From the IMG/VR virus record IMGVR_UViG_3300022885_000010: DNA of 64,000 nucleotides; one strand, written 5' to 3'. The notes under the pieces were generated by a model. The model was not told the origin of the DNA and ran no database searches. It was given only the letters and a program-made list of their open reading frames with translations. The DNA is from a virus. Shown here one piece after another: positions 10,753 through 62,376 of this stretch. How positions within the stretch are numbered: the first letter of the stretch is position 1; every line of letters starts with the position of its first letter. A program made the translations under genes and the position numbers.

Positions 10753-11136
10753 ATGATACTTAAAAAATTATATATTGATGAAATCACATCTATTATTCAA
10801 ATATTCCATTCTAATAATAATAATAAAATTTATTATGAAGATAGTAATGGATTTTGGGTAAAAAGCGAATTTGATTCTAATAACAATAGAATTTATTATG
10901 AAGATAGTAATGGATTTTGGGTAAAAAGCGAATTTGATTCTAATAATAATGAAATTTATTATGAAAATAGTGATGGATATTGGTCAAAAAAGGAATTTGA
11001 TTCTAATAACAATCGAGTTTATTGGGAAACTGATGATGGATATTGGGTAAAACAAGAATATAATTCTAATAATATAGGAATTTATTTTGAAAGTAGTGAT
11101 GGAACTATATTTGACGAAAGACCTAACAAAAAATAA
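10753..11136 (+). CDS. 21-aa repeat family protein
   Basis: MILKKLY cap, DSNNNxIYYEDSNGFWVKxEF repeats, RPNKK end. Confidence 0.85.
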   Translation: MILKKLYIDEITSIIQIFHSNNNNKIYYEDSNGFWVKSEFDSNNNRIYYEDSNGFWVKSEFDSNNNEIYYENSDGYWSKKEFDSNNNRVYWETDDGYWVKQEYNSNNIGIYFESSDGTIFDERPNKK

Positions 11137-11170
11137 AATTTGTTTATATCGATTTATTTTCGTAAGTTTG
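11130..11170 (+). promoter_or_regulatory. Bacteroidota-type promoter copy 2
   Basis: AAAATAAAA-TTTG-N20-TAAGTTTG, overlaps repeat-gene stop. Confidence 0.85.
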
Positions 11171-11195
11171 TAATTATTTTAATACAGAGGAAACA

Positions 11196-11873
11196 ATGAA
11201 CAATTTATATTTTGATATAGAAACATATCCAATATATGATTCTTACAAAGAAGATGAACTATTAATACCTATATGGGAACGGTTTTGTAATTACAAATTA
11301 AATAAAAAGCCAGAATACGAAGATGAATTAAATAGATACGATCTATTATGGGATAGTTCTTCGTCATTATATCCTACATTTGCAAAGATATTATGTATAT
11401 CATTTATATATGATAATGATGGGGAATTACACACTGGAACATTAAAAGGTGAAGAGTCCGAAATAATAGGACAGTTCAATGAATTACTAGAGAACTATAT
11501 AGATTTTATAGTAGGTCATAACATACTACAATTTGATTTACCATTTATAATTAGACGTGCTATGGTAAATGGGATTCCATATAAGAATTTACCTAAATAT
11601 CTACACGTAGTAGGTAAAAAACCATGGAATTTACATTATATATATGATACTAAGCAAAAATTAACATTTACTTCTAACTTCGGTGGTGTTATAACACCAT
11701 CATTAGAACAAGCGTGTTATGAGGCTAATATAGACACACCTAAGACCGATATAGTCAATGGTGGTAATTTAGTACCATTTATCAAATCTGGTGGTGATAT
11801 AGAGCTTATATATGAGTATTGTGAGAAAGATGTTTATACTACATATAGGTTATATGAATGGATGAACCAGTAG
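11196..11873 (+). CDS. PolB-like DEDDy 3'-5' exonuclease
   Basis: FDIET, GHNILQFDLPFI, YCEKDV. Confidence 0.88.
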   Translation: MNNLYFDIETYPIYDSYKEDELLIPIWERFCNYKLNKKPEYEDELNRYDLLWDSSSSLYPTFAKILCISFIYDNDGELHTGTLKGEESEIIGQFNELLENYIDFIVGHNILQFDLPFIIRRAMVNGIPYKNLPKYLHVVGKKPWNLHYIYDTKQKLTFTSNFGGVITPSLEQACYEANIDTPKTDIVNGGNLVPFIKSGGDIELIYEYCEKDVYTTYRLYEWMNQ

Positions 11874-12073
11874 TCACACACATCGCTTTTGTTGTGGATT
11901 ATATTTATATACATTCAATACAAGAACCGAGATCAAACAGAACTATAGTTATAATGTTTTATAATTTTTTGGTGACTGGTGATCATAGAGTTCCATATTC
12001 CATCTATGGCTATCAGATTGAATATAATAGAATATACGAATCATACGTAAAATGGAAATTAATTAATGGATGA
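11858..12073 (+). CDS. WKL-tail family small protein
   Basis: C-terminal YESYVKWKLING. Confidence 0.65.
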   Translation: MDEPVVTHIAFVVDYIYIHSIQEPRSNRTIVIMFYNFLVTGDHRVPYSIYGYQIEYNRIYESYVKWKLING

Positions 12074-12272
12074 GCATGACTTTATATACTTCAGAGATGA
12101 TCATATAGAGGTAGATTTATATCCACCACAAACAGTGAATATGAAATTTGCTTATAATTTTTATAATAGTTTCCAACCTATAAACGAAGATTATTATAGG
12201 CGTTATGGGAATGAATTTAGTTATATACGTATTTTTTATAATTATGTAAAATGGAAATTAATTAAGGAGTGA
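12066..12272 (+). CDS. WKL-tail family small protein
   Basis: C-terminal YNYVKWKLIKE. Confidence 0.65.
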   Translation: MDEHDFIYFRDDHIEVDLYPPQTVNMKFAYNFYNSFQPINEDYYRRYGNEFSYIRIFYNYVKWKLIKE

Positions 12273-12275
12273 AAT

Positions 12276-12839
12276 ATGCCATGCTATTCATATTATGGTG
12301 AAAAGGATGATAATTGTGGTTGTAGAAATACACCAGAACCAACTAAGAAACAAAAAAAAGAATCCAAACGTCTTAATGTTTTGTATTACGTTAGATGTAA
12401 TTCGTTATTACTAAATAAATTAATTGAATGTACGATTACAATGTTAAATCCGAGTATGGATCCAGTAATATCTAAATCTATATTTGAAGATATTATTAAT
12501 AAATCTAGATTATCATTTAATATGTTAGAATTGGTATTTGATGAGAATGATACACTAAAGGAATTAAATAAGATTAAACATAAGTACGATTCCAGTCTAT
12601 GTGCTATATTAAGTTATCTTGATATGGAACTGATGGTAGATAATGTTATATCATCAAGTGAATATGAGAACTTCAAAGAGGACATCTACGAATTCTGGGT
12701 AGAACATAAAAGAAAAGATATAGATAGGGTTACTGCTGAACTCAATCGTGTGTTTAGTGAGACTGAAATGCATTTGTTAATTAATAATATTATAAATGAA
12801 GCTAAAGAACTTAAAATAATTCAGATGGTTATACTATAA
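12276..12839 (+). CDS. hypothetical protein
   Basis: ORF track. Confidence 0.65.
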   Translation: MPCYSYYGEKDDNCGCRNTPEPTKKQKKESKRLNVLYYVRCNSLLLNKLIECTITMLNPSMDPVISKSIFEDIINKSRLSFNMLELVFDENDTLKELNKIKHKYDSSLCAILSYLDMELMVDNVISSSEYENFKEDIYEFWVEHKRKDIDRVTAELNRVFSETEMHLLINNIINEAKELKIIQMVIL

Positions 12840-13047
12840 GAGTACGAGATTTTAACAATCGTGTAATTTATCATAAAGATATTAATGAAAATTGGCAAAT
12901 GTATAAATATGATTCTAAAGGTGACTGTATTTATATTGAAATAGTTACGGTGAATGGGCAAAAAAAGAATTTGATTTTAATGGTAATGAAATTTATTATG
13001 AACGTAATGATGGTACTATAATAGATAATCGACCTAACAAAAAATAA
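12796..13047 (+). pseudogene. Frameshifted 21-aa repeat family gene
   Basis: MKLKNL start, YDSKGDCIYIE and EFDFNGNEIYYERNDGTIIDNRPNKK* in different frames; two indels in A-runs. Confidence 0.7.
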
Positions 13048-13081
13048 AATTTGGAAGTTAATAAATAATTCCGTAAGTTTG
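13041..13081 (+). promoter_or_regulatory. Bacteroidota-type promoter copy 3
   Basis: AAAATAAAA-TTTG-N20-TAAGTTTG. Confidence 0.85.
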
Positions 13082-13141
13082 TAAATTATCTTTCAGAAAG
13101 AAAGTAATTAAGTTTTAACATTAACAAAAAGAGTAAATATA

Positions 13142-14038
13142 ATGAGTGTAGATATTAAATATGGTAGAAAGAAATCAGGTATCAGAAAGGAACTAAATAA
13201 AAAAGTATCTAATTGGATAGATAGTATAGATGATGAGAATATACAAAAATTATGTAGAAAAAATACAATCGTAACTGGTGGCTCTATAGCATCTATGTTA
13301 TTAGGTGATCCAGTAAATGATTATGATATATATTTTAAAACTAAAGATTGCAATATACAAGTAGCTAAATATTACATTAATAAATTAAATAGTATTAGAG
13401 TATCTAATAAATTAGATGAAGTTCCTATGAATGTAATTGAAAAGTCTATTTGTAATATTAAAGGTGTAGATGAAGATAGAGTTTATATTGAAGCAAGAGG
13501 TGGTAAGGGTATCGTAACAAATGAAACAGATTCTGATGATTTCGGTGATTTTGTTACAGATGAAAATGGTAAATATGCACCTGTGTTCATATCAAGTAAT
13601 GCTATAACATTAACAGATAAGATTCAATTAGTAACTAGATTTTATGGTGATCCACAAACTATCCATAGTAATTATGATTTTGTTCATGCTATGAATTATT
13701 ATGATTATGATAATGATACGTTGGTATTGCACCCAGAAGCATTAGAATGCTTGTTATCGAGGACTTTAGTATATAAAGGTAGTTTATATCCAATAGCATC
13801 TATATTTAGAACTAAGAAGTTCTTAGAACGTGGTTGGAGAATATCTGCTGGAGAACAATTAAAAATAATGTGGCAAATATCTGAAATAGATATGTCTGAT
13901 ATTAATGTCTTAACTGAACAATTAACTGGTGTTGATCAAGCATATATGTATGCGTTAGTAGATATATTACAAGATTCTAAGAAAGAAGATATTAATTCTA
14001 CTTATGTAGCTAAAATTATAGATAAGTTATTTGACTAA
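13142..14038 (+). CDS. Putative Pol-beta-fold nucleotidyltransferase-like phage protein
   Basis: VTGGSIASMLLG..NDYDIYF resembles GG..DxD NTase signature. Confidence 0.55.
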   Translation: MSVDIKYGRKKSGIRKELNKKVSNWIDSIDDENIQKLCRKNTIVTGGSIASMLLGDPVNDYDIYFKTKDCNIQVAKYYINKLNSIRVSNKLDEVPMNVIEKSICNIKGVDEDRVYIEARGGKGIVTNETDSDDFGDFVTDENGKYAPVFISSNAITLTDKIQLVTRFYGDPQTIHSNYDFVHAMNYYDYDNDTLVLHPEALECLLSRTLVYKGSLYPIASIFRTKKFLERGWRISAGEQLKIMWQISEIDMSDINVLTEQLTGVDQAYMYALVDILQDSKKEDINSTYVAKIIDKLFD

Positions 14039-17916: not shown

Positions 17917-18387
17917 ATGAATGAGAATTATGAATTTTTCTGGTCAGGGCCATTTAGTCAATGGCATCCTTGTAAATTTGAAATAGATGGTGATATGTAT
18001 AATTGTACAGAACAGTATATGATGCAACAAAAGGCTTTATTCTTTGGTGATGAATTAACTGCTTCAAAGATTATGAATACTTTACATCCAAAACAACAGA
18101 AGAAACTAGGTAGAGAAGTTTCAAATTTCATTGCTGAAAAATGGTCAGTTGTATGTGAAGAAATTGTATATAAAGGAAACCATGCAAAGTTCACACAAAA
18201 CGAAAAATTATTAAATAAATTACTTGATACTAAAGATAAAACTTTAGTTGATGCTTCTCCATGTGATAAGATTTGGGGTATTGGTTTACTTGAAGATGAT
18301 CCAAGAGCACAAGACCCTGAACAGTGGTTAGGTTTAAATTTGTTAGGAAAGGTCTTAACTAAATTAAGAGATGACTTAGTTAAATAG
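17917..18387 (+). CDS. NADAR (YbiA-family) protein
   Basis: FSQWHP, EQYMMQQKA, KKLGR, AKFTQN, DKIWGIG, NLLGKVL. Confidence 0.92.
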   Translation: MNENYEFFWSGPFSQWHPCKFEIDGDMYNCTEQYMMQQKALFFGDELTASKIMNTLHPKQQKKLGREVSNFIAEKWSVVCEEIVYKGNHAKFTQNEKLLNKLLDTKDKTLVDASPCDKIWGIGLLEDDPRAQDPEQWLGLNLLGKVLTKLRDDLVK

Positions 18388-20432: not shown

Positions 20433-20506
20433 GGGCCATTAGCTTAATTGGGAAAGCACCATACTTGCAATATGGGGGTTATCGGTTCAAATCCGATATG
20501 TGTCCA
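20433..20506 (+). tRNA. tRNA-Ala(TGC)
   Basis: CCATA-CTTGCAA-TATGG; ATCGG-TTCAAAT-CCGAT; bulged acceptor stem. Confidence 0.78.
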
Positions 20507-20513
20507 CAAATCT

Positions 20514-20600
20514 ACCGGTATAGACAAATGGTAAAGTCACGCGATTTAGACTCGTGGGTAAACGAAGATACACTTGGAAGTTCAAATCTTCCTACCGGTA
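20514..20600 (+). tRNA. tRNA-Leu(TAG)
   Basis: ACCGGTA/TACCGGT; CGCGA-TTTAGAC-TCGTG; long variable arm. Confidence 0.85.
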
Positions 20601-20612
20601 CACTAAAAAAAT

Positions 20613-20697
20613 GGAAATACGGCAATTGGTGTAGCAAACTCTTTGCTAAAGAGTCAATCGTGAAAACGAGATGAAGGTTCGATTCCTTTTATTTCCG
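20613..20697 (+). tRNA. tRNA-Ser(GCT)
   Basis: GGAAATA/TATTTCC, G73; ACTCT-TTGCTAA-AGAGT. Confidence 0.88.
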
Positions 20698-20702
20698 CAT
20701 TT

Positions 20703-20732
20703 TCGAAGTACATCTATACTTCGACTTTTAAA
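20703..20732 (+). terminator. Hairpin at end of tRNA cluster 2
   Basis: TCGAAGTA/TACTTCGA followed by CTTTT. Confidence 0.5.
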
Positions 20733-20746
20733 TTTAACATATCATT

Positions 20747-20787
20747 AAAATAAAATTTGTTTATATCAATTTAATTTCGTAAGTTTG
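20747..20787 (+). promoter_or_regulatory. Bacteroidota-type promoter copy 6
   Basis: AAAATAAAA-TTTG-N20-TAAGTTTG. Confidence 0.85.
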
Positions 20788-20812
20788 TATATTATTAATT
20801 ATTAGATTTAAT

Positions 20813-21061
20813 ATGACACAATTTTACTCAACCATCGATGACGGATTAACTGGAATTGATAAAGATATATTTGAGTGTGAAATGGTAATAAATGAATTAG
20901 AAACCATTTTAAATACTAGATATGAGCTTCCAACGCACGGATATGAAGAAACTATATGGGATAAAGCTACTATATACCGAAATGAATGTAAACGAATAGT
21001 TGCAGAAAAGAATGTAGAATTACAACAACTCATAAAGCAAAAACATGAGTGTATAAAATGA
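20813..21061 (+). CDS. hypothetical protein
   Basis: First ORF after promoter. Confidence 0.65.
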   Translation: MTQFYSTIDDGLTGIDKDIFECEMVINELETILNTRYELPTHGYEETIWDKATIYRNECKRIVAEKNVELQQLIKQKHECIK

Positions 21062-21237
21062 AACTTAAATGTATATACAATACCAATAACCACAATTTAT
21101 CAAATATAATAGATAAGTTGCTTGTACGTGTATACAATACACATAAATCTTCTTATCCAAATAACATTATGATTTTGGAACTCAATGAACTCTCGATTGT
21201 GAATCGTGTGTATTTAGTACGATATTTTATAAAATAA
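21058..21237 (+). CDS. MxxKxxY-tag small protein
   Basis: MKLKCIYN start. Confidence 0.55.
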   Translation: MKLKCIYNTNNHNLSNIIDKLLVRVYNTHKSSYPNNIMILELNELSIVNRVYLVRYFIK

Positions 21238-21243
21238 AATAAA

Positions 21244-21753
21244 ATGAAACTTAAAATATTATATATCAATGTAACTGATGAAATAAATATATACAATTCA
21301 AATAATAAATGGGTTTATTGGGAATATAATGATGAATTTTGGGTAAAAAGAGAATTTGATTCTAATAATAATCGAATTTATCGTGAAGATAGTAATGGAT
21401 TTTGGGTAAAAAGCGAATTTGATTCTAATAATAATGAAATTTATTGGGAATATAATGATGGAAATTGGGTAAAAAGAGAATATGATTCTGATAGTAATGA
21501 AATTTATCATGAGGATATTAATGGATTCTTTTATATAAAAGAATATGATTCTAATAATAATGAAATTTATTATGAAGATAGTGATGGAGATTGGTCAAAA
21601 AGAGAATTTGATTCTAATAACAATCTAATTTATCATGAAGATAGTGATGGAACTATAATAGATAACAGACCTAAAGAAGTTAAAAGATTAACTCATAAAG
21701 AAATATGTGAATTAATTGGATTTGATGTAGAAATAATTAAAGAGAAGGAATAA
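21244..21753 (+). CDS. 21-aa repeat family protein with LTHKEICELIG tail
   Basis: MKLKILYINVTDE cap, repeats. Confidence 0.85.
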   Translation: MKLKILYINVTDEINIYNSNNKWVYWEYNDEFWVKREFDSNNNRIYREDSNGFWVKSEFDSNNNEIYWEYNDGNWVKREYDSDSNEIYHEDINGFFYIKEYDSNNNEIYYEDSDGDWSKREFDSNNNLIYHEDSDGTIIDNRPKEVKRLTHKEICELIGFDVEIIKEKE

Positions 21754-21762
21754 TAAAATAAA

Positions 21763-22200
21763 ATGAAACTTAAAATATTATATATCAATGTAACTGATGA
21801 AATAAATATATACAATTCAAATAATAAATGGGTTTATTTTGAAAATAGTAATGGAGATTGGATAAAAAGAGAGTTTGATTCTAATAACAATGAACTTTAT
21901 TGTGAAGATAGTGATGGATTTTGGGTAAAAAAGGAATTTGATTCTAATAACAATGAACTTTATTATGAAGATGGTGATGGATTTTGGGTAAAAAACGAAT
22001 TTGATTCTAATAATAATGAAATTTATTATGAAGATAGTAATAGATTTTGGGTAAAAAAGGAATTTGATTCTAATAACAATGAACTTTATTATGAAGATGG
22101 TGATGGATTTTGGGTAAAAAACGAATTTGATTCTAATAATAATGAAATTTATTATGAAGATAGTAATGGTATGATAACGGATAACAGACCTAAGAAATGA
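21763..22200 (+). CDS. 21-aa repeat family protein
   Basis: Same cap, GMITDNRPKK end. Confidence 0.85.
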   Translation: MKLKILYINVTDEINIYNSNNKWVYFENSNGDWIKREFDSNNNELYCEDSDGFWVKKEFDSNNNELYYEDGDGFWVKNEFDSNNNEIYYEDSNRFWVKKEFDSNNNELYYEDGDGFWVKNEFDSNNNEIYYEDSNGMITDNRPKK

Positions 22201-22634
22201 AACTTAAAATATTATATATCAATGTAACTGATGAAATAAATATATACAATTCAAATAATAAATGGGTTTATAGTGAAAATAGTAATGGACTTTGGGTAAA
22301 AATCCAATATGATTCTAATAATAATGAAATTTATTGGGAAAATCATGATGGACTTTTGGTAAAAAAAGAATACGATTCTAATAACAATCTAATTTATTGT
22401 GAACATAGTAATGGATTCTTTTATATAAAAGAATTTGATTCTAATAACAATGAACTTTATTGTGAATATAGTAGTGGACTTTGGGTAAAAAAAGAATTTG
22501 ATTCTAATGGTAATATACTTTATCGTGAAAATAGTAATGGACTTTGGGTAAAAATCCAATATGATTCTAATAATAATGAAATTTATTGGGAAAATTATGA
22601 TGGAACTATAATAGATAGTAGAACTAAAAAATAA
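22197..22634 (+). CDS. 21-aa repeat family protein
   Basis: Same cap, stop inside promoter. Confidence 0.85.
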   Translation: MKLKILYINVTDEINIYNSNNKWVYSENSNGLWVKIQYDSNNNEIYWENHDGLLVKKEYDSNNNLIYCEHSNGFFYIKEFDSNNNELYCEYSSGLWVKKEFDSNGNILYRENSNGLWVKIQYDSNNNEIYWENYDGTIIDSRTKK

Positions 22635-22668
22635 AACTTGTATATATCATTTCTTTTTCGTAAGTTTG
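22628..22668 (+). promoter_or_regulatory. Bacteroidota-type promoter copy 7
   Basis: AAAATAAAA-CTTG-N20-TAAGTTTG. Confidence 0.85.
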
Positions 22669-22692
22669 TAAATTATAATAAGGGAATATTAA

Positions 22693-23193
22693 ATGGGATT
22701 GATAGAACACGCACAAAAAGAATTACGTTTGGCAGGTGTAGATAGTAAAGAAGCTATGTACGATGGTATGTTGTATAATGCAATTATGGAATTAATAACA
22801 ACATTCAGTAAACAAGGACATTCTGGTTATTCAGCAAGAATAGTAATTGATATATTTAACAAATTAGCTAATTTTGAACCTATATCACCTTTAACGTATG
22901 AAGACGATGAATTTAATGATAATAATAAAAATATAAGACGTTCTGATGTATTTAGAGAAACCGAAGATGGTAGATTTTACTATATCAGTGCTATACAATG
23001 GTTAAATCCAGATGGTAGTGTGTGGACTGGTACTGCTACTTGTAATGGAAAATCAATATCATCAACACAATATATTAAACATAGAAATATGCCATTAAAA
23101 ACATTTACTATTGAAGTAGATGATGATTTTAATGTATTAAATAGTGATGATTTGAATGATGTGTTTGTTTATTATGATAGATATGAAACTTAA
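22693..23193 (+). CDS. Conserved-looking phage hypothetical protein
   Basis: HAQKEL..FSKQGHSGYSA motif recalled from phage proteins. Confidence 0.7.
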   Translation: MGLIEHAQKELRLAGVDSKEAMYDGMLYNAIMELITTFSKQGHSGYSARIVIDIFNKLANFEPISPLTYEDDEFNDNNKNIRRSDVFRETEDGRFYYISAIQWLNPDGSVWTGTATCNGKSISSTQYIKHRNMPLKTFTIEVDDDFNVLNSDDLNDVFVYYDRYET

Positions 23194-23683
23194 AATATTA
23201 TATATCAATGTAACTGATGAAATAAATATATACAATTCTAATAATAATGAAATTTATTGGGAAAATAGTAATGGAGATTTGGTAAAAAGCGAATTTGATT
23301 CTAATAACAATAGAATTTATTATGAAGATAGTAATGGAGATTGGTCAAAAAGAGAATATGATTCTAACAGTCTTGAAATTTATTATGAAGATAATGATGG
23401 ATTTTGGGTAAAAAGCGAATTTGATTCTAATAATAATGAAATTTATTGTGAATATAATGATGGAAATTGGGTAAAAAGAGAATATGATTCTAATAACAAT
23501 AGAATTTATTATGAAGATAGTGATGGATATTGGTCAAAAAGCGAATTTGATTCTAACAGTCTTGAAATTTATTATGAAGATAGTAATGGATTTTGGGTAA
23601 AAAAAGAATTTGATTCTAATAACAATAGAATTTATTATGAAGATAGTAATGGTATGATAACGGATAACAGACCTAAGAAATGA
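23183..23683 (+). CDS. 21-aa repeat family protein
   Basis: MKLKILYINVTDE cap, GMITDNRPKK end. Confidence 0.85.
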   Translation: MKLKILYINVTDEINIYNSNNNEIYWENSNGDLVKSEFDSNNNRIYYEDSNGDWSKREYDSNSLEIYYEDNDGFWVKSEFDSNNNEIYCEYNDGNWVKREYDSNNNRIYYEDSDGYWSKSEFDSNSLEIYYEDSNGFWVKKEFDSNNNRIYYEDSNGMITDNRPKK

Positions 23684-24496
23684 TACTTAAAATATTATAT
23701 ATCAATGTAACTGATGAAATAAATATATACAATTCAAATAATAAATGGGTTTATTGTGAAAATAGTAATGGACTTTGGGTAAAAATCCAATATGATTCTA
23801 ATAATAATGAAATTTATTGGGAAAATAGTAATGGAGATTTGGTAAAAAGCGAATTTGATTCTAATAATAATGAAATTTATTGTGAATATAGTGATGGAGA
23901 TTGGTCAAAAAGAGAATATGATTCTAATAATAATAGAATTTATTGTGAAGATAGTGATGGAGATTGGTCAAAAAGAGAATATGATTCTAATAATAATGAA
24001 ATTTATTGTGAAGATAGTAATGGAGATTGGGTAAAAAAAGAATTTGATTCTAATAATAATAAAATTTATTATGAAGATAGTAATGGATTTTGGGTAAAAA
24101 GCGAATTTGATTCTAATAACAATAGAATTTATTATGAAGATAGTAATGGATTTTGGGTAAAAAGCGAATTTGATTCTAATAACAATCTAATTTATTGTGA
24201 AGATAGTGATGGAGATTGGTCAAAAAGAGAATATGATTCTAATAACAATGAACTTTATTGTGAAGATAGTAATGGATTTTGGGTAAAAAAGAGAATATGA
24301 TTCTAATAATAATGAAATTTATTATGAAAATAGTAATGGATTTTGGGTAAAAAACGAATTTGATTCTAATAATAATTGTATTTATTGGGAAGATAGTAAT
24401 GGATATTGGATAAAAAAAGAATTTGATTCTAATAACAATCTAATTTATTTTGAAAATAGTGATGGTGGAACCTATGATTATAGACCTAACGGATGA
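23680..24496 (+). pseudogene. Longest 21-aa repeat family gene, frameshifted in an A-run near 24290
   Basis: ORF stops at 24300; repeats continue in shifted frame to DYRPNG* at 24496. Confidence 0.75.
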
Positions 24497-24690
24497 AATA
24501 TAAAACTATATATAATAATAAGAAAATTTATTTTTGGTGTATATATACGTATGACCACAAAATTAATTGTATTATAGGTAGGAAAATACATACATCACGA
24601 ATAGAATATGATTCTACTGGTTCTCCACATTATTACGAATATGATAGTGATTATAATTTAATACAAATCCCCAAACCTAAGCAATGGTAG
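24493..24690 (+). CDS. MxxKxxY-tag small protein
   Basis: MKYKTIYNN; degenerate EYDS repeat. Confidence 0.6.
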   Translation: MKYKTIYNNKKIYFWCIYTYDHKINCIIGRKIHTSRIEYDSTGSPHYYEYDSDYNLIQIPKPKQW

Positions 24691-24923
24691 TTAAAACAGT
24701 ATATAATAATGTACATATAATATATGATTTGTGTTTCGTCACAATATATCATATTAGAGATAATATTGAGTGTAGAATTGTGCATAGTTATGATTATGAT
24801 AAGGTACATCATATCTATAGTGATGGTTGGTGGTCAAAACATGAATACGGTCCTGGTAATGAAGAAATTTATTATGAAGATGGTGATGGAATTATAATAG
24901 ACAGCAGACCTAACAAAAAATAA
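24684..24923 (+). CDS. Divergent repeat family protein
   Basis: MVVKTVYN, WWSKHEY..EIYYEDGDG, RPNKK end. Confidence 0.7.
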   Translation: MVVKTVYNNVHIIYDLCFVTIYHIRDNIECRIVHSYDYDKVHHIYSDGWWSKHEYGPGNEEIYYEDGDGIIIDSRPNKK

Positions 24924-24957
24924 AATTTGGAAGTTAATAAAAAATTTCGTAAGTTTG
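24917..24957 (+). promoter_or_regulatory. Bacteroidota-type promoter copy 8
   Basis: AAAATAAAA-TTTG-N20-TAAGTTTG. Confidence 0.85.
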
Positions 24958-25010
24958 TATTAGTAATTCGAACAAATAATAATTTTAAATAATAATTAAG
25001 GAGTATAGAG

Positions 25011-25229
25011 ATGGACATCTATATGGAAAAATGTGTTTCGTTTGATATTCATAACGAGAAACACGAAGAAATAATCTGTCAGTTTTTTGCTGACAACACA
25101 GTTGTATTTACTATGGAGCCAACTGAAGAAGATGATATTAAACATGATATTGGTTATGCTGATACAAGTGGTTTAAATCGTTCGTATGTAGAGTGGAAGC
25201 TAACAGGTCAAAATTCAGCGAGGGAATAA
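25011..25229 (+). CDS. WKL-tail family small protein
   Basis: SYVEWKLTG near C-terminus. Confidence 0.6.
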   Translation: MDIYMEKCVSFDIHNEKHEEIICQFFADNTVVFTMEPTEEDDIKHDIGYADTSGLNRSYVEWKLTGQNSARE

Positions 25230-25230
25230 C

Positions 25231-26058: not shown

Positions 26059-26090
26059 TATGTTAGTTAGAAAGATATATAATAATCATA

Positions 26091-26315: not shown

Positions 26316-26316
26316 T

Positions 26317-28224: not shown

Positions 28225-28229
28225 GTAAT

Positions 28230-28394: not shown

Positions 28395-28399
28395 AAAAA

Positions 28400-29664: not shown

Positions 29665-29673
29665 GGTAAACAT

Positions 29674-48558: not shown

Positions 48559-48723
48559 ATGAAGATTAAGAAATTATATTTACCTCTTGATATTATGATA
48601 TATATACATGACTATAAATTTAGATGGGTATATATATGTACAACCAGTAATTTCTTTGAATGTTACATTCATACTGGTGTGCGTGTGGAGAGTTATAGTG
48701 GATATAGAAGTGATGAAGATTAA
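48559..48723 (+). CDS. MxxKxxY-tag small protein (54 aa)
   Basis: Hand translation MKIKKLYLPLDI...SDED*. Confidence 0.55.
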   Translation: MKIKKLYLPLDIMIYIHDYKFRWVYICTTSNFFECYIHTGVRVESYSGYRSDED

Positions 48724-49004: not shown

Positions 49005-49198
49005 TAGTTAAAAATTTATATATAAATTCCAATTTTAACTGTATCATGTACGTCAAGGATAACGAATACAATATAATATATGGTTGTTATATACATGTAG
49101 GTGGGTATTGGGTAAAACGTGTTATAGGTTCTAATAATAAACAAATATATTATGAAAATAATCATGGGTTTATAATAAATGAAAGACATAAGAAATGA
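49001..49198 (+). CDS. Divergent repeat family protein
   Basis: MIVKNLY; YWVKRV..SNNKQIYYEN. Confidence 0.7.
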   Translation: MIVKNLYINSNFNCIMYVKDNEYNIIYGCYIHVGGYWVKRVIGSNNKQIYYENNHGFIINERHKK

Positions 49199-49749
49199 TA
49201 CTTAAAAAATTATATAATGATGTAACTGGTATCATGAATATATTAAATTCTAACGAGAATTCTATATTCTGGAAACACACTGATGGGTTTTGGGATATAC
49301 AAGAATATGATTCCAATGGAAATATAGTTTATTCTATTAATAGTTTTGGGAATTGGTATCGATGTGAATATGATTCTAATAATAATCAAATTTATCGTGA
49401 ATATAATGATGGGCACTGGCTAAAACAAGAATATGATTCTAATAATAATGAAATTTATTGGGAAGATAGTAATGGATATTGGGTAAAAAACGAATTTGAT
49501 TCTAATAATAATGGAATTTATTGGGAAAATAGTGATGGATATTGGGTAAAAAACGAATTTGATTCTAATAATAATGAAATTTATTGTGAAAATAGTAGTG
49601 GGCACTGGGTAAAAAGAGAATATGATTCTAATGGTATGATCTATTATGAGGATAGTGAAGGTGAGTTGGTAGATAACAGACCTAAAGAAAATAAAATTTG
49701 GAAGTTAATAAATAATTTCGTAAGTTTGTATTATAATTTTAAACAATAA
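49195..49749 (+). CDS. 21-aa repeat family protein reading through the promoter
   Basis: Ends RPKENKIWKLINNFVSLYYNFKQ (promoter translated). Confidence 0.85.
   Translation: MILKKLYNDVTGIMNILNSNENSIFWKHTDGFWDIQEYDSNGNIVYSINSFGNWYRCEYDSNNNQIYREYNDGHWLKQEYDSNNNEIYWEDSNGYWVKNEFDSNNNGIYWENSDGYWVKNEFDSNNNEIYCENSSGHWVKREYDSNGMIYYEDSEGELVDNRPKENKIWKLINNFVSLYYNFKQ
49688..49728 (+). promoter_or_regulatory. Bacteroidota-type promoter copy 15
   Basis: AAAATAAAA-TTTG-N20-TAAGTTTG. Confidence 0.85.
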
Positions 49750-50535: not shown

Positions 50536-50931
50536 ATGAAAAATGTAGAGTATAATATAGTAGATAATAAAATAGAATTGACTTGTAATTTGGATAATGA
50601 TTATGAATTATCATTAACTATATATAATAACGAAGATTACTTTGTATGTGACTTCACTATACATGATATATCTGATATTAATGATGTATTGGTTACAGGT
50701 GAGAATATATCATTGGAAGAGTTCGGTAAGAAAGCAAATATTAAATTCCCAGATTATAAGTTTAGATTGGTTAATAGAAATAATCAAACTATAGAATTAT
50801 TCAATTATATGGTTGAAAGTAATTATACACATAAAACTATAATATTAGCAACTGAAACTGGATTTGATAGTGTGTTCATTATAGATATTGAATATGCTGA
50901 GTTCGTGGAAGACTCATGTGATATGGCATAA
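50536..50931 (+). CDS. hypothetical protein
   Basis: ORF track. Confidence 0.6.
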   Translation: MKNVEYNIVDNKIELTCNLDNDYELSLTIYNNEDYFVCDFTIHDISDINDVLVTGENISLEEFGKKANIKFPDYKFRLVNRNNQTIELFNYMVESNYTHKTIILATETGFDSVFIIDIEYAEFVEDSCDMA

Positions 50932-51242
50932 TGATAGTTAAGAAATTATATAATATTGTGTTTGATCCAATAGATATAAACAACTCTAATAACAATCTAA
51001 TTTATTGGGAAAATAATAATGGATTTTGGGTAAAAAGCGAATATGATTCTAATAATAATGAAATTTATTATGAAGATAGTGATGGATTTTGGGTAAAAAG
51101 CGAATTTGATTCTAATAATAATGAAATTTATTGTGAAAATAGTAATAGATTTTGGGTAAAAAAGGAATTTGATTCTAATAATAATGAAATTTATTGTGAA
51201 AATAGTAATGGAACTATATTTGACGAAAGACCTAAAAAATGA
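50931..51242 (+). CDS. 21-aa repeat family protein
   Basis: MIVKKLY cap, GTIFDERPKK. Confidence 0.85.
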   Translation: MIVKKLYNIVFDPIDINNSNNNLIYWENNNGFWVKSEYDSNNNEIYYEDSDGFWVKSEFDSNNNEIYCENSNRFWVKKEFDSNNNEIYCENSNGTIFDERPKK

Positions 51243-51691
51243 TACTTAAAAAATTATATATTGATACTGTAATTCATAATCCTATAGTGCTATATGATTC
51301 TAATAATAATGAAATTTATTATGAAGATAGTAATGGATATTGGGTAAAAAGAGAATTTGATTCTAATAATAATGAAATTTATTATGAAGATAGTAATGGA
51401 TTTTGGGTAAAAAGCGAATATGATTCTAATAATAATCGAATTTATCGTGAAAATAATAATGGATTTTGGGTAAAAAGCGAATTTGATTCTAATAATAATG
51501 AAATTTATTGGGAATATAATGATGGATTTTGGGTAAAAAGAGAATTTGATTCTAATAATAATCTAATTAATCATGAATATAGTAATGGAATTATACGAGG
51601 TAAAAGACCTAAAGAAACAAAAAGATTAACTCATAAAGAAATATGTGAATTAATTGGATATAATGTAGAAATAATCAAAGAGAAGGAATAA
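51239..51691 (+). CDS. 21-aa repeat family protein with LTHKEICELIG tail
   Basis: MILKKLYIDTVIHNP cap; tail as in 21244. Confidence 0.85.
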   Translation: MILKKLYIDTVIHNPIVLYDSNNNEIYYEDSNGYWVKREFDSNNNEIYYEDSNGFWVKSEYDSNNNRIYRENNNGFWVKSEFDSNNNEIYWEYNDGFWVKREFDSNNNLINHEYSNGIIRGKRPKETKRLTHKEICELIGYNVEIIKEKE

Positions 51692-51695
51692 TAAA

Positions 51696-52331
51696 ATGAA
51701 GATGACTTTAGAAAAATTACTTAAAAATCAAGAATTTCCGAAGGAACTATTTGATAAAAACGGAAATCAAATTTATTGGGAACGTAGTAATGGAGATTGG
51801 TCAAAAAGCGAATTTGATTCTAATAATAATGAAATTTATTGGGAAAATAGTAATGGAGATTTGGTAAAAAGAGAATTTGATTCTAATAACAATCTAATTT
51901 ATTGGGAAAATAATAATGGATTTTGGGTAAAAAGCGAATATGATTCTAATAATAATGAAATTTATTATGAAGATAGTAATGGATTTTGGGTAAAAAGCGA
52001 ATTTGATTCTAATAATAATGAAATTTATTGGGAATATAATGATGGATTTTGGGTAAAAAGAGAATTTGATTCTAATAATAATAGAATTTATTGTGAATAT
52101 AGTGATGGATTTTGGGTAAAAAGCGAATTTGATTCTAATAATAATGAAATTTATTGGGAATATAATGATGGATTTTGGGTAAAAAGAGAATATGATTCTA
52201 ATAATAATAGAATTTATTGTGAACATAGTGATGGAATTATACGAGGTAAAAGACCTAACAAAAATAAAATTTGGAAGTTAATAAATAATTTCGTAAGTTT
52301 GTATTATAATTTTAAACGAAACAATAAATAA
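51696..52331 (+). CDS. 21-aa repeat family protein reading through the promoter
   Basis: MKMTLEK..FPKELFDKNGN cap; ends NKIWKLINNFVSLYY. Confidence 0.85.
   Translation: MKMTLEKLLKNQEFPKELFDKNGNQIYWERSNGDWSKSEFDSNNNEIYWENSNGDLVKREFDSNNNLIYWENNNGFWVKSEYDSNNNEIYYEDSNGFWVKSEFDSNNNEIYWEYNDGFWVKREFDSNNNRIYCEYSDGFWVKSEFDSNNNEIYWEYNDGFWVKREYDSNNNRIYCEHSDGIIRGKRPNKNKIWKLINNFVSLYYNFKRNNK
52261..52301 (+). promoter_or_regulatory. Bacteroidota-type promoter copy 16
   Basis: AAAATAAAA-TTTG-N20-TAAGTTTG. Confidence 0.85.
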
Positions 52332-52345: not shown

Positions 52346-53602
52346 ATGTCAGTTAGATTCGATCTAATAAACAAAATAGACTCTATCCAATCAGAGCTAC
52401 AAAGAAAATATGCAGGTGTTATCTTGTCACAAGGAGCAACCTTATATATTAAAGGTGCGGCTGGAACAGGTAAATCAGCTGTATTACGTGAACTTGCTAA
52501 AAGTTTAGATATGCAAGTTATTGTACTTGTAATCTCACAAGTAGATGAGGCTGATTTAGGTATCTATCCAGAAACTTATGATTATATACCTGATGATGAA
52601 CCTAATGCTAAACCAGTTAGATGTTTTAGATATTTACCTGCTGAATGGGCTATCAAGGCAAGTCAACAACCAACGTTAGTTATATTTGAGGAATTGAATA
52701 GATCAACTATAGAAAAGAGAAATGCTTGTTTACAGATTTTAACTGAATGGAGAGTAGGTCAATATCTAATGAACAAAGAGAATGTATTTTTTGCCGCATC
52801 CGGTAATATAGGTAATGAAGATGGTAATGACGTAGATGAATTTGATAATGCTATGATTAATAGATTGTGTATTATGAATCAAATATCAAACTATCAACTA
52901 TGGAAATCAGAGTTTGGTGATGCAAACGTATCAAGTGTATTAATGGATTATTTAGATTCGACTGGTGGTAGTGTTATACACGATCAAGCACATGTTAAGA
53001 ATAATACAGCTAATCGTACTCCATACGCTACAGAACGTAGTTGGAGTAATCTATCAGAGTATATAGTTAGTATTCATCATACAGACCCAACAGATCCTAA
53101 ATCACCTATTAAGGATAAAGGTAAATTAATCTATGAATTAGATAATAATGGTATTGCACATGGATATATTGGTAATAATGCTATTAAATTCATTTCATAC
53201 TTGAAAAATTCAAATGATGTATCAGTAGATAATATATTAAATGATTTTGATTTAGTTAGAAAATCAATTAGAAAATTAGAACAATCTGACGCAACATCAA
53301 TTATATATGACTTAGGTAAGTTAGATATTGGTGCATTAAAAGAATCTCAAATTATGAATATATTTGCTTTCTTAGATTTAATGCCATCTAAGGATTTACG
53401 TGCTACTTACATTAAAGATGTATTTATGAAATGTATTGATGAACATGGAATGAAATTAACATTTATAAATGATAGACCTTCATATTTCAAGCCACAATTC
53501 ATTAGTAATTTCAAATTGTTTAGAGATAACAATATGGAGTTATTCAAAGAGACTATCAAAGGTTGTAATAATGATGAACTTGGCTTAACAAATACAAAAT
53601 AA
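52346..53602 (+). CDS. MoxR-like AAA+ ATPase
   Basis: GAAGTGKS (Walker A), IFEELNR (Walker B), AASGN, AMINR, TERSW. Confidence 0.85.
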   Translation: MSVRFDLINKIDSIQSELQRKYAGVILSQGATLYIKGAAGTGKSAVLRELAKSLDMQVIVLVISQVDEADLGIYPETYDYIPDDEPNAKPVRCFRYLPAEWAIKASQQPTLVIFEELNRSTIEKRNACLQILTEWRVGQYLMNKENVFFAASGNIGNEDGNDVDEFDNAMINRLCIMNQISNYQLWKSEFGDANVSSVLMDYLDSTGGSVIHDQAHVKNNTANRTPYATERSWSNLSEYIVSIHHTDPTDPKSPIKDKGKLIYELDNNGIAHGYIGNNAIKFISYLKNSNDVSVDNILNDFDLVRKSIRKLEQSDATSIIYDLGKLDIGALKESQIMNIFAFLDLMPSKDLRATYIKDVFMKCIDEHGMKLTFINDRPSYFKPQFISNFKLFRDNNMELFKETIKGCNNDELGLTNTK

Positions 53603-58520: not shown

Positions 58521-59161
58521 TGGATCGCAAATATGGAGTAGAACCTTTATTATTAGATAATATTAGGATTGATTGTAATGAAATGATGTTATATATGTAT
58601 TTGCCTATTTACATAGAAGATTTACATGATAATATCAGAGTTCCAGAGAGATTAAAAATATTTAATTCATTGATATATAGTTCTATTGGTAACGTTCAAT
58701 CTATGGATATAAAATATAAATATATGTATCTAACTGTTAAATGTAGGTATGTAGATAGATATAACTTAGCTAATAGACCAGGTTGGCACTCTGATGGCTT
58801 TGGTACTGATGATATTAATGTTATATGGTGTGATAATGATCCAACTGTATTTTCTATACAAGACTTTGATTTATCTGATGACCATAATCTTTCTATGAAA
58901 GAGATGACTAATCAATGTAATCCGATAAACAATAAAACTTATAATAGTTATGATTTGTTATTATTAGATCAATACGTTATACATAGAAGTCCTATTATAG
59001 AAGATGCAAAAATAAGAACGTTTTTTAAATTGAGTTTCTCTAATTATAGATATAATTTAATAGGTAATTCTCATAATTATTTATTTGATTATAAGTGGGA
59101 TATGCATCAACGACAAATAGAACGAAATCATCCAATATATGAAGAATCTGATATTTCATGA
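58520..59161 (+). CDS. Putative Fe(II)/2-oxoglutarate-dependent oxygenase
   Basis: NRPGWHSDG (HxD), distal IHRSP, RTFFK. Confidence 0.65.
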   Translation: MDRKYGVEPLLLDNIRIDCNEMMLYMYLPIYIEDLHDNIRVPERLKIFNSLIYSSIGNVQSMDIKYKYMYLTVKCRYVDRYNLANRPGWHSDGFGTDDINVIWCDNDPTVFSIQDFDLSDDHNLSMKEMTNQCNPINNKTYNSYDLLLLDQYVIHRSPIIEDAKIRTFFKLSFSNYRYNLIGNSHNYLFDYKWDMHQRQIERNHPIYEESDIS

Positions 59162-59352
59162 TACTTAAAAAATTATATATTGATGAAATCCATATTCTTA
59201 TACGGATATTTAAATTTAATCTTAATATTAAGCGAGTTTATTGGGAAAATAGTAATGGATTTTGGGTAAAAAACGAATTTGATTCTAATAATAATGAAAT
59301 TTATTATGAAGATAGTAATGGAATTATCGATGATAACAGACCTAAAAAATGA
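59158..59352 (+). CDS. 21-aa repeat family protein (short)
   Basis: MILKKLYIDEI cap, RPKK end. Confidence 0.8.
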   Translation: MILKKLYIDEIHILIRIFKFNLNIKRVYWENSNGFWVKNEFDSNNNEIYYEDSNGIIDDNRPKK

Positions 59353-59579
59353 TACTTAAAAAATTATATATTGATACTGTAATTCATAATCCTATAGTGC
59401 TATTTGATTCTAATAATAATGAAATTTATTGGGAATATAGTAATGGACTTTGGGTAAAAATAGAATATGATTCTAATAATAATGAAATTTATTGTGAATA
59501 TAATGATGGATTTTGGGTAAAAAGAGAATATGATTCTAATAATAATCAAATTTATCGTGAAGATAGTAATGGTAAATAA
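59349..59579 (+). CDS. 21-aa repeat family protein, C-cap frameshifted
   Basis: DNRPKI cap present in shifted frame just after the stop. Confidence 0.75.
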   Translation: MILKKLYIDTVIHNPIVLFDSNNNEIYWEYSNGLWVKIEYDSNNNEIYCEYNDGFWVKREYDSNNNQIYREDSNGK

Positions 59580-59598
59580 AGGATAATAGACCTAAGAT

Positions 59599-59967
59599 AT
59601 GATACTTAAAAAATTATATATTGATGAAATCCATAATCCTATAGTGCTATTTGATTCTAATAATAATGAAATTTATTGGGAATATAATGATGGATTTTGG
59701 GTAAAAAGAGAATTTGATTCTAATAATAATCGAATTTATCGTGAAGATAGTAATGGATTTTGGGTAAAAAGCGAATTTGATTCTAATAATAATGAAATTT
59801 ATTGGGAATATAATGATGGATTTTGGGTAAAAAGAGAATATGATTCTAATAATAATGAAATTTATTATGAACATAGTGATGGAATTATACGAGGTAAAAG
59901 ACCTAACAAAAATAAAATTTGGAAGTTAATAAATAATTTCGTAAGTTTGTATTATAATTTTAAATAA
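59599..59967 (+). CDS. 21-aa repeat family protein reading through the promoter
   Basis: Ends RPNKNKIWKLINNFVSLYYNFK. Confidence 0.85.
   Translation: MILKKLYIDEIHNPIVLFDSNNNEIYWEYNDGFWVKREFDSNNNRIYREDSNGFWVKSEFDSNNNEIYWEYNDGFWVKREYDSNNNEIYYEHSDGIIRGKRPNKNKIWKLINNFVSLYYNFK
59909..59949 (+). promoter_or_regulatory. Bacteroidota-type promoter copy 18
   Basis: AAAATAAAA-TTTG-N20-TAAGTTTG. Confidence 0.85.
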
Positions 59968-60739: not shown

Positions 60740-60921
60740 TTGAAATAACGATATTAGGATTAACATTTTTAATCATGGCATTAATAACTTTAATTATTAG
60801 TGTGTTTACTAATGACGAGTTTACAGATATTATTGGTGCATTTGCATTTATATCAATGGTATGCTTTATTGTTTCATTTGGAGTTTGGATTTATAATTTG
60901 TTATTGGGATTAATAAAATGA
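60736..60921 (+). CDS. Small two-TM membrane protein
   Basis: Almost entirely hydrophobic. Confidence 0.6.
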   Translation: MIEITILGLTFLIMALITLIISVFTNDEFTDIIGAFAFISMVCFIVSFGVWIYNLLLGLIK

Positions 60922-61529
60922 AAATATTACATTTGTATAGTGGTATTGGTGGGAATAGAAAGTTGTGGGGTAATGAACACCAAATTACAGCCGTTGAATT
61001 TGACCCTGATATTGCAGCAATTTATAAATCATATTTCCCTAATGATAAAGTAATTGTAGCAGATGCACATCAATTTTTATTAGAGAATTACAAGGATTAT
61101 GATTTCATTTGGAGCAGTCCACCTTGTCAAACACATTCAAGATTACTTACTTCTTGGAAAAACCAACCTAAATTCCAAAAACATATTAAATATCCTGATA
61201 TGAAGTTATATCAAGAGATACTATTTTTAAAACATTGGTTTGATGGTAAATATGTAGTTGAAAATGTAATTCCATACTATAAAGCATTGATAGAGCCAAC
61301 GATAGAATTACATAGACATAACTTTTGGACTAATATATCTTTAACTAAAAGAACATTTGAAGATGATAGAAAGCATAGGAACATTGAAGATAATACAACT
61401 GTATATGGTTTTAGTTTGGAAGGTATGAAGATAAAGGGTAAACGTCAAATATTAAGAAATTTAGTTAATCCTGAAGTTGGGAAGTACATATTAGATTCTC
61501 TAACTGATGATAATGTTAATCCATATTAA
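60918..61529 (+). CDS. Short C5-cytosine DNA methyltransferase
   Basis: LYSGIGG (motif I), SPPCQ (IV), VENV (VI). Confidence 0.88.
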   Translation: MKILHLYSGIGGNRKLWGNEHQITAVEFDPDIAAIYKSYFPNDKVIVADAHQFLLENYKDYDFIWSSPPCQTHSRLLTSWKNQPKFQKHIKYPDMKLYQEILFLKHWFDGKYVVENVIPYYKALIEPTIELHRHNFWTNISLTKRTFEDDRKHRNIEDNTTVYGFSLEGMKIKGKRQILRNLVNPEVGKYILDSLTDDNVNPY

Positions 61530-61540
61530 GTAAAGGTAAA

Positions 61541-61843
61541 ATGATGAAAGATATTGCAAATATAGCTTTGGTTGGTATCGTCTTATTCTATCTGATGATA
61601 CTTACTATTGAAAATAGTAATAGAATTAGAATTGAATTTCCATACAAATATACACCTGAAGAGTTACATGATGATAGTAATATAATATATAGATATGTTA
61701 AATGGGATAAGTGGAATAAAAGAATTGTAAAATTTAAAACTGATGAATTAGTTATACCAGTTATGAGAATAGTTAAGTGCAATGATGGTAAGATTGATAC
61801 GTTTTATAGATATAAACAACCGATGAATTATATAATATTTTAA
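61541..61843 (+). CDS. hypothetical membrane-anchored protein
   Basis: N-terminal hydrophobic segment. Confidence 0.55.
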   Translation: MMKDIANIALVGIVLFYLMILTIENSNRIRIEFPYKYTPEELHDDSNIIYRYVKWDKWNKRIVKFKTDELVIPVMRIVKCNDGKIDTFYRYKQPMNYIIF

Positions 61844-61883
61844 AAATAAAATTTGGAAGTTAATAAATAATTTCGTAAGTTTG
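61843..61883 (+). promoter_or_regulatory. Bacteroidota-type promoter copy 19
   Basis: AAAATAAAA-TTTG-N20-TAAGTTTG. Confidence 0.85.
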
Positions 61884-61913
61884 TAAATTAATAATCAAAG
61901 AAAAGGAATAAAA

Positions 61914-62342
61914 ATGTCAAAATACAAAGTAACTGATGAATATGCTAAATATTTAGAATTAGAAAATAAAATAGAATCGTTAGGAGGATTTGATTATGGT
62001 TATCTAATAAGTTCAAACGTAAAAATGATATTTAAAAAATTATATATGAATAAAGTCGATTATTCTATATGGATAAACGATTCCAATAATAATCAAATTT
62101 ATATTGGTAATGGTGGTGGTTATTGGTTTAGAAGAGAATTTGATTCTAATAATAATGTAATTTATCGTGAAAACAGTGATGGATTTTGGGTAAAAAGCGA
62201 ATTTGATTCTAATAACAATAGAATTTATTATGAAGATAGTGATGGAGATTGGTTTAAAAGTGAATTTGATTCTAATAGTCTTGAAATTTATTGTGAATGT
62301 AGTGATGGAACTATACGAGGTAAAAGACCTAACAAAAAATAA
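61914..62342 (+). CDS. 21-aa repeat family protein with extra unrelated N-terminal segment
   Basis: 37 foreign residues fused before MIFKKLY cap; RPNKK end. Confidence 0.8.
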   Translation: MSKYKVTDEYAKYLELENKIESLGGFDYGYLISSNVKMIFKKLYMNKVDYSIWINDSNNNQIYIGNGGGYWFRREFDSNNNVIYRENSDGFWVKSEFDSNNNRIYYEDSDGDWFKSEFDSNSLEIYCECSDGTIRGKRPNKK

Positions 62343-62376
62343 AATTAGGAATTAACTAAATAATTTCGTAAGTTTG
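62336..62376 (+). promoter_or_regulatory. Bacteroidota-type promoter copy 20
   Basis: AAAATAAAA-TTAG-N20-TAAGTTTG. Confidence 0.85.

Follow-up and report, generated by a model that had tools for sequence, protein, structure and literature searches.

Predicted early promoters and YD-like repeat arrays in a jumbo phage from salt lake metagenomes

A promoter that recurs across a phage genome at the ends of repeat genes raises the question of whether repeat and promoter together form a unit that shuffles the genes behind it. We addressed this question in a 64,000-nucleotide (nt) stretch of a phage genome, IMG/VR virus record IMGVR_UViG_3300022885_000010, referred to below as the window. The window carries 20 copies of a 43-nt promoter element and ten arrays of genes built from a repeat of 21 amino acids (aa). 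The original prediction held that repeat-gene ends and promoters are fused into cassettes, and that these act as hubs of homologous recombination that insert, delete or reorder cargo operons without an integrase. We found that the observation is confirmed and that the interpretation is partly supported, while active gene shuffling is a proposal only. The explanation that we favour, with somewhat better than even confidence, is that of early promoters in a compact genome and a YD-like gene family that has spread by exchange, with the differing gene orders seen in other assemblies being mostly assembly artefacts.

A predicted Bacteroidota-type promoter at the ends of repeat-gene arrays

The 20 promoter copies are all on the + strand and align without any insertion or deletion, giving the pattern AAAATAAAATT[T/A]G-N18-T[T/C]CGTAA[G/A]TTTG[T/A]A. 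The -7 box is TAAGTTTG in 19 copies and TAAATTTG in one, of the form TAnnTTTG, and a TTTG, TTAG or CTTG lies exactly 20 nt 5' of TAAGTTTG in 20 out of 20. With the TAAGTTTG box set at -12 to -5, the TTTG lands at -36 to -33, in the place of the published -33 element. The consensus of the Bacteroidota primary sigma factor consists of a TAnnTTTG -7 box and a TTTG -33 element (PMC9723704, PMC7366714). Judged by its sequence, the 43-nt element matches this sigma-A consensus at both boxes and in their spacing. A generic Bacteroidota pattern (TT[TA]G-N19-21-TAnnTTTG) was found to have 23 matches on the + strand and one on the - strand, compared with 2.1 in shuffles, and AAAATAAAA occurred 33 times with 9.9 occurrences expected. 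Two spacer subtypes could be distinguished, type A (TTTATATC.ATTTA..) and type B (GAAGTTAATAAATAAT or a GGAATT variant). Another 16 promoter copies were identified in the same genome outside the window, most of them not behind repeat genes, and the boxes were kept at all 36 known copies, whatever the neighbouring gene.

We propose that the element would be the standard early promoter of the phage, read by a host primary sigma factor of the Bacteroidota type. Its layout would comprise an A-rich upstream element, the TTTG and TAAGTTTG, with transcription predicted to start about 45 nt past the first A of AAAATAAAA, some 5-7 nt beyond TAAGTTTG. A stem-loop within the promoter was rejected, as RNAalifold predicted no pairs and no conserved hairpin in the 20 copies. 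Terminator-like sites were not enriched, with only two in 20500-40000 and none in any cassette. The arrays (with aa lengths of their genes) and the promoters, named by start position, are as follows.

10753-11136, + strand: array 1, a single YD-like repeat gene (127 aa) with tail RPNKK-stop and its own promoter, P10707
11130-11172, + strand: P11130, type A; array 1 stops at its TAA; followed by a PolB-type 3'-5' exonuclease gene (11196-11873)
12838-13047, + strand: array 2, a repeat-gene remnant with two degenerate units; last open reading frame (ORF) of 35 codons, tail RPNKK-stop
13041-13083, + strand: P13041, type B; followed by a 298-aa gene (13142-14038) with a precomputed Gad2 hit
21244-22634, + strand: array 3, three repeat genes (169, 145 and 145 aa) with stops and starts overlapping or close; last tail RTKK-stop
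22628-22670, + strand: P22628, type A with CTTG at -33; followed by a Tad3-family gene (22693-23193)
23156-24923, + strand: array 4, comprising 23156-23683, 23680-24300, fragments and a degenerate member at 24684-24923 (tail RPNKK-stop)
24917-24959, + strand: P24917, type B; followed by a 72-aa ORF and ThyX (25231-26058)
33024-34275, + strand: array 5, three repeat genes (123, 168 and 126 aa), tail RPKK-stop; the exact 168-aa gene is on four contigs
34269-34311, + strand: P34269, type A; followed by a GT_PLOD-like glycosyltransferase gene (34343-35101)
35098-35849, + strand: array 6, two repeat genes (123 and 127 aa)
35843-35885, + strand: P35843, type B
49195-49749, + strand: array 7, a single repeat gene (184 aa) whose frame runs on through the promoter (…RPKENKIWKLINNFVSLYYNFKQ-stop)
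49688-49730, + strand: P49688, type B, read-through subtype
50931-52331, + strand: array 8, three repeat genes (103, 150 and 211 aa), the last reading through the promoter
52261-52303, + strand: P52261, type B, read-through subtype; followed by a MoxR-like AAA gene (52346-53602) and a VWA/DUF2201 gene
59158-59967, + strand: array 9, three repeat genes (64, 76 and 122 aa), the last reading through the promoter
59909-59951, + strand: P59909, type B, read-through subtype; about 300 nt near-identical to the 52261 cassette
61914-62342, + strand: array 10, one gene (142 aa) with a non-repeat N-terminus and 4-5 units, tail RPNKK-stop and its own promoter, P61843
62336-62378, + strand: P62336, a TTAG variant of type B
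10707, 14039, 17840, 20747, 30191, 36759, 39492, 47256, 56784 and 61843, + strand: starts of the ten promoters not behind repeat genes, 43 nt each

All ten sites for which an overlap with repeat-gene ends had been described directly follow a repeat-gene tail, RP(N)KK or, at 22628, RTKK. In 7 of the 10, the in-frame stop codon is the TAA at +4 of AAAATAAAA, in agreement with the original prediction, which had said this of most sites. The sites 49688, 52261 and 59909 have one base fewer ahead of the TAA, which makes the ORFs (49195-49749, 51696-52331 and 59599-59967) run through the promoter as NKIWKLINNFVSLYYNFK and stop 56-68 nt into the promoter region; this accounts for the shifted frame that had been noticed there. 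Sequencing error was rejected as the cause of the three read-through frames, since they are identical in independent assemblies and have flanking bases in common, and transcriptional slippage was judged unlikely on an A-run of just 5-6 A. Upstream of 13041 lies a 35-codon remnant, and upstream of 24917 a degenerate 79-aa member. The cargo was also found to differ from cassette to cassette as described, including the PolB-type exonuclease, Tad3, ThyX, GT_PLOD and MoxR-like AAA genes.

The overlap is wider than the repeat genes. An upstream stop codon lies within -4 to +4 nt of the promoter start in 16 of the 20 copies, the exceptions being the three read-through genes and P36759, whose upstream ORF is only 16 codons long. 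The +4 TAA also serves as the stop of four non-repeat ORFs (at 17840, 20747, 30191 and 56784), and five other non-repeat ORFs end 1-4 nt 5' of the promoter motif. The overlap of stop and promoter belongs to the promoters generally, not to the repeat genes or to a special cassette. In a one-strand, tightly packed genome, promoters would begin a few bases from the upstream stop, and the TAA of the A-rich element would often be that stop. The finding of 10 of 20 promoters behind about 22 repeat genes among about 135 genes gave a hypergeometric P of about 1e-4, for copies that are paralogous and not independent. The converse association is stronger, as all ten repeat-gene arrays of the window finish at a promoter.

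We further characterized the repeat genes. The window contains 21 repeat genes or remnants with about 117 units of 21 aa (63 nt), whose consensus is close to EFDSNNNEIYYEDSNGFWVKS; within a fixed scaffold, certain positions vary. Protein length is 64-211 aa, with 2-9 units each, and the family is acidic, with isoelectric points (pI) of 4.2-5.5 except for the 64-aa member (pI 6.6). No Pfam family match and no RHS hit was found for ten members. The AlphaFold model, run on 13 paralogues, gave a strip of 13 beta strands with a mean predicted local distance difference test (pLDDT) score of 89.8. The top Foldseek matches in the PDB were the YD shells of RhsA, Tse5, Tc BC and teneurins, with E values of 2.5e-8 to 1e-6 and template modelling (TM) scores of 0.6-0.74. 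The repeat proteins carry no closed shell, Rhs core, C-terminal toxin or any extra domain; the model indicates that they are short YD/Rhs-like beta-hairpin arrays lacking these parts. Each gene consists of a leader module (of four main types), the units and a tail module of the type DG.I.D.RP(N)KK, DGTIRGKRP(N)KK or RPKE.KRLTHKEICELIG..VEIIKEKE.

Within arrays, genes are joined stop to start by a separate conserved 34-nt junction (family D18; …AAGAAATGATACTTAAAAAATTATATATTGAT), which is present in 15 copies, for example at 22190, 23673, 33385, 33888, 35459, 51232, 59342 and 59592. It couples the stop of a repeat gene to the start of the next gene and a MILKKLYID leader, which also heads many other small ORFs. 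Gene 21763-22200 contains two successive 126-nt copies (21917-22167, two units each) that are identical over 125 nt. One of these copies is missing from JGI contig L006, leaving a 103-aa gene, which may reflect either real copy-number variation or assembly collapse.

Two side observations concern the promoter. Outside the window, L026:17800-22000 of the same phage holds eight promoter copies in about 4 kilobases (kb), each 5' of a small gene and with a very uniform spacer (TTTGGAATTGTCAAAATAATTTCG), a denser cluster than any promoter array in the window. In addition, a gene-end module (TATATAAA[A/G]TGGAAATT[A/G]A at 12053, 12252, 39055, 39249, 39473, 43125 and 46954) codes for the C-terminal ...Y(I/V)KWKL of small ORFs and overlaps the next ATG in three places. 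The module is similar to the -33 part of the type-B promoter (AAAATTTGGAAGTTAAT), the part that codes for the KIWKL of the three read-through repeat genes, and a relic relationship between the two is possible.

Exchange among the repeat genes

We then compared the repeat genes across the window. Leader and tail types were found in all combinations. The MKLKILYINV leader is paired with the KEKE tail at 21244 and with the RPKK tail at 21763, and the MILKKLYIDTVIH leader is paired with all three tails (33392, 35466 and 51239), so exchange between copies is required. Exact tracts of 93-132 nt connect arrays located 10-38 kb apart, with flanks that are only 35-80% identical. These patterns in the sequence point firmly to past recombination within the repeat family.

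The promoter has been included in some of this exchange. The cassettes at 49688, 52261 and 59909 all show the 1-nt loss, carry an identical type-B promoter and match over another 15 bases, which indicates that tail and promoter were copied as a unit; from these sequences we count at least two such events. Homology between cassettes always stops at most about 20 nt past the CGTAA, near the predicted transcription start. The array sequences of the window are reproduced exactly in JGI, ENA and Logan contigs and can therefore be trusted.

A simple mechanism would suffice for these features. The repeat genes would form one multigene family of small acidic proteins that always come last in a transcription unit, so that the last tail, with its RPNKK-stop, meets the next promoter. 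We infer that the family has grown and spread by unequal and ectopic homologous recombination among its own copies. Such exchange would necessarily drag the adjacent promoter along, leaving near-identical tail-and-promoter units before unrelated genes. As no other dispersed direct homology in the genome comes near the arrays in size, they would also be the likeliest sites of deletion, duplication and circle formation, which would be occasional and need no dedicated mechanism.

Alternative block orders and their explanations

To describe the gene order in other assemblies, we retrieved alternative contigs by exact look-up of cargo proteins, which yielded contigs from at least seven other assemblies. 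The window was divided into blocks A (up to 21.3 kb), B (21.3-33.4 kb), C (33.9-51.7 kb), D (52.1-59.7 kb) and E (from 59.9 kb), with X, Y1, Y2 and Y3 denoting stretches of the same phage outside the window. Joins of differing order were B to D (twice, with different breakpoints), D to B (twice), D to C, A to C, C to C, C to B, A to E, A to A, X to C, B to Y1, B to Y2 and C to Y3, together with several array contractions. All alternative breakpoints were located inside repeat-gene bodies, in frame and in unit register, and none in a promoter. Breakpoints inside repeat genes had been predicted and were found in these contigs, but the contigs are more likely artefacts, and no diverged relative that could show such breakpoints was found in the collections searched.

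Outside the repeat genes, the unique DNA of every alternative contig had no mismatches to the window over tens of kb, so the contigs derive from one clone. At least 11 different long-range joins were seen, each on one contig only, and the same block end was given a different partner in almost every assembly. Some junction genes were mosaics of three or four loci, with phrases of 49-110 nt that are often common to several paralogues; the mosaic in L025 runs 51.0k, 33.4k, 59.5k, 24.4k and that in L020 runs 21.2k, 22.3k, 21.97k, 34.2k. These mosaics fit a walk through a pruned de Bruijn graph and not three successive crossovers in a lineage free of single-nucleotide polymorphisms (SNPs). In assembly ERZ27315640 (MEGAHIT), each of three mapped blocks was closed or self-joined: L036 (10.5 kb) is a verified closed cycle whose first 141 nt equal its last 141 nt, a second closed cycle of about 16.2 kb was deduced, and a third contig has both of its ends in one repeat gene. 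No phage chromosome is therefore possible from them. The only recurrent variant was a fusion of the array 6 genes into one 145-aa gene (-314 nt), which was present in four assemblies made with MEGAHIT (k141) but in none of the JGI or Logan contigs. The longest contigs have the window order and the exact array genes, and contigs of JGI 3300022845 tile B-C-D in window order.

Taken together, we infer that the long-range joins are probably assembly artefacts, and that changes of copy number inside an array have a better claim to be real. The idea of repeats and promoters as recombination hubs therefore stands in part. It is supported by the copying of tail and promoter as a unit and by the marks of ectopic recombination in the repeat genes, but not for insertion, deletion or reordering of cargo, for which the rearranged contigs represent one SNP-free clone, are singletons and mosaics, and contradict the longest contigs.

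Several points weigh against the artefact explanation and its wider frame. Several crossovers lie in 36-132-nt tracts, some of only 36-101 nt, that are identical between the parents and shorter than the final k of 141; the same assemblies carry unique DNA unbroken over tens of kb, and exact repeats that reach 141 nt are absent from the window. A clonal genome of this kind should assemble through, so some hybrid molecules or array variants may be real. The A to E join (L032) and the D to B join (L006) are reciprocal at the same 127-nt tract and stem from samples and assemblers that differ. The position of all ten arrays at operon ends is not an obvious outcome of duplication alone, and the function and timing of the promoters are deduced from the consensus match. 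Multi-k assemblers can prune single-copy edges beside many-copy k-mers at small k and never restore them. This pruning could explain the short-tract crossovers, the contiguous unique DNA and the reciprocal pair. Most hybrid proteins had no exact match in the collection, which carries little weight either way.

The same short tracts and reciprocal pair are what one would expect if the arrays were actively shuffling in the manner of the promoter-early stem-loops (PeSLs) of T4-type phages, with frequent recombination between arrays and with deleted, duplicated, permuted and circular forms coexisting and moving cargo operons between positions and co-infecting genomes. The joins, on contigs from six assemblies, also fit, as they fall precisely within repeat genes and keep both the reading frame and the unit register, and the two closed-cycle contigs resemble excised circles; mini-circles and PeSL-mediated insertions and deletions have been documented in T4-type phages (PMC2839356), and the cargo is of the usual accessory early kind, with Tad3 and NADAR as examples. 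We nevertheless hold this to be a minority possibility. Order differs in nearly every assembly while the unique DNA shows zero SNPs across samples, each long-range junction was seen once, and within 700 nt several junction genes would call for three exchanges in succession, between loci that are 10-30 kb apart. Forward joins would remove the block with the endolysin and ParB genes, the three closed or self-joined blocks of one assembly leave no viable chromosome, and the longest contigs and the JGI contigs retain the window order. That the alternative junctions themselves are real, with in-register array recombination at high frequency in a clonal jumbo-phage population yielding hybrid early proteins and deleted, duplicated or circular units of promoter, cargo and repeat, strikes us as doubtful.

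Two further explanations were weighed. Local tandem duplication only, with promoters conserved for function and adjacency due to compaction, would require no dispersed recombination. It agrees with the generality of the stop/promoter overlap, with promoter boxes conserved at the 36 known copies regardless of neighbour and with the tandem arrays and their conserved gene-gene junction, yet it leaves unexplained the long exact tracts and shuffled leader and tail modules that connect distant arrays, the frameshift and non-functional flanking bases common to three distant cassettes, and the end of 10 out of 10 arrays at a promoter; we consider it improbable. Programmed diversification would instead make the arrays a gene-conversion reservoir that varies an early YD-repeat protein, as in antigenic variation, with real and selected hybrids. 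The in-frame, in-register hybrid genes, the units with fixed scaffold and variable positions, and an acidic family behind early-type promoters are in line with this. However, such hybrids are equally expected from homology-guided assembly errors, they are singletons, and no recombinase, template-and-target asymmetry or reverse transcriptase was seen, which makes this explanation very improbable. Early promoters in a compact genome, with a repeat family spread by exchange, remain the explanation that we prefer.

Known systems and the remainder of the genome

The idea of an integrase-free cassette has already been described for PeSLs in T4-type phages (PMC2839356, PMC4122927). As in that system, many near-identical promoters, here predicted to be strong host-type early promoters, have an AT-rich upstream part that contains the stop of the upstream gene, and they separate small accessory genes in a large lytic phage. 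The role proposed for PeSLs is to provide homology for insertions and deletions, swaps and mini-circles without an integrase. The two systems differ in that the stem-loop or terminator part is absent here according to RNAalifold and the terminator scan, the promoter is of the Bacteroidota -33/-7 type and not of the sigma-70 -35/-10 type, and the recombining homology seen is that of the 0.1-1.8-kb coding repeat arrays 5' of the promoter and not the promoter itself. The present case is also known from assemblies of one clone. By analogy, we regard it as a variant of the PeSL cassette idea that lacks the defining stem-loop and uses coding repeats.

The Campylobacter group II phages CP21, CP220 and CPt10 similarly have low-GC large genomes cut into modules by repeats, RR1-RR4 (PMC4546147). 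These are kb-long regions of 72-86-bp units in which unit number varies, module order differs and short-read assembly is blocked; each genome has four of them, for the most part outside genes and with inverted repeats among them, and the module rearrangement was proven by polymerase chain reaction (PCR) on isolates (PMC4546147). In contrast, the units described here are codons of genes, all direct, in at least ten arrays, and the rearrangement is putative.

At the protein level, the 21-residue beta-hairpin unit and YD-like signature are also found in YD/Rhs proteins such as Rhs effectors of type VI secretion systems, the BC components of Tc toxins, and teneurins, and the predicted repeat strip superposes on Rhs shells. 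The phage proteins differ in having 2-9 units, no closed shell, core or toxin and no Pfam RHS match, and in belonging to a putative early multigene family. In poxvirus gene accordions and the multigene families at the ends of large DNA viruses, paralogue copy number changes by unequal recombination of tandem copies, and the poxvirus accordions amplify one adaptive gene transiently under selection. The family in the window is instead dispersed, diverged and stably interleaved with unrelated operons.

If the arrays truly drive exchange, the PeSL principle would extend to a Bacteroidota jumbo phage, with a stem-loop-less promoter and protein-coding repeats as the homology, and would explain the distribution of accessory genes for Tad3, NADAR, exonuclease and glycosyltransferase. 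If the junctions are real, a coding repeat family would double as a recombination scaffold that moves anti-defence and metabolic operons. In practice, short-read metagenome assemblies of this phage are probably scrambled at the arrays, so differences in gene order between such contigs should not be taken as biology without read-level support.

We searched viral, metagenome and IMG/VR collections for diverged relatives of the phage and found none. A scan with the promoter pattern gave no matches in viral contigs and none in metagenome contigs, and a 16-mer of the -7 region had only 39 single, chance-like matches in IMG/VR. The 1151-aa gene had nothing close among cultured phages (megablast, tblastn). 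The next best matches of the MoxR-like protein were 52%, 51% and 36% identical, on contigs that were too short for neighbours or, in the case of L043, had neither promoter nor repeat genes. IMG/VR contigs with a repeat protein (L002-L004) had nothing else in common with the window.

The window is 100% identical to JGI contig Ga0222664_1000099 (67,945 nt), has a GC content of 27% and carries nearly all long ORFs on the + strand. The sequencing runs in which the phage occurs carry the label salt lake metagenome. Both JGI 3300022845 contigs and those of one Logan run end and start within about 10 nt of each other at 29313-29319 and 48618-48628, which are unique sequence with nothing unusual visible. 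The gene content includes two transfer RNA clusters, glycan-synthesis genes, ThyX, NUDIX, a ParB-like gene, an amidase endolysin, ClpP, a polynucleotide kinase-phosphatase and anti-defence-type genes. Of the last, a Tad3-family Thoeris inhibitor (22693-23193, E 9e-30) and a NADAR domain protein (17917-18387, E 1e-50) are located behind promoters; the precomputed Gad2 hit of the 298-aa protein (13142-14038) was not reproduced by our own Pfam scan. Another part of the same phage is represented by a 68-kb IMG/VR contig (L001, IMGVR_UViG_3300023296_000416) with a CheckV completeness of 35%, which puts the genome at roughly 200 kb. This contig terminates in at least four further repeat genes with the MKMTLKKLLKNQEFPK leader.

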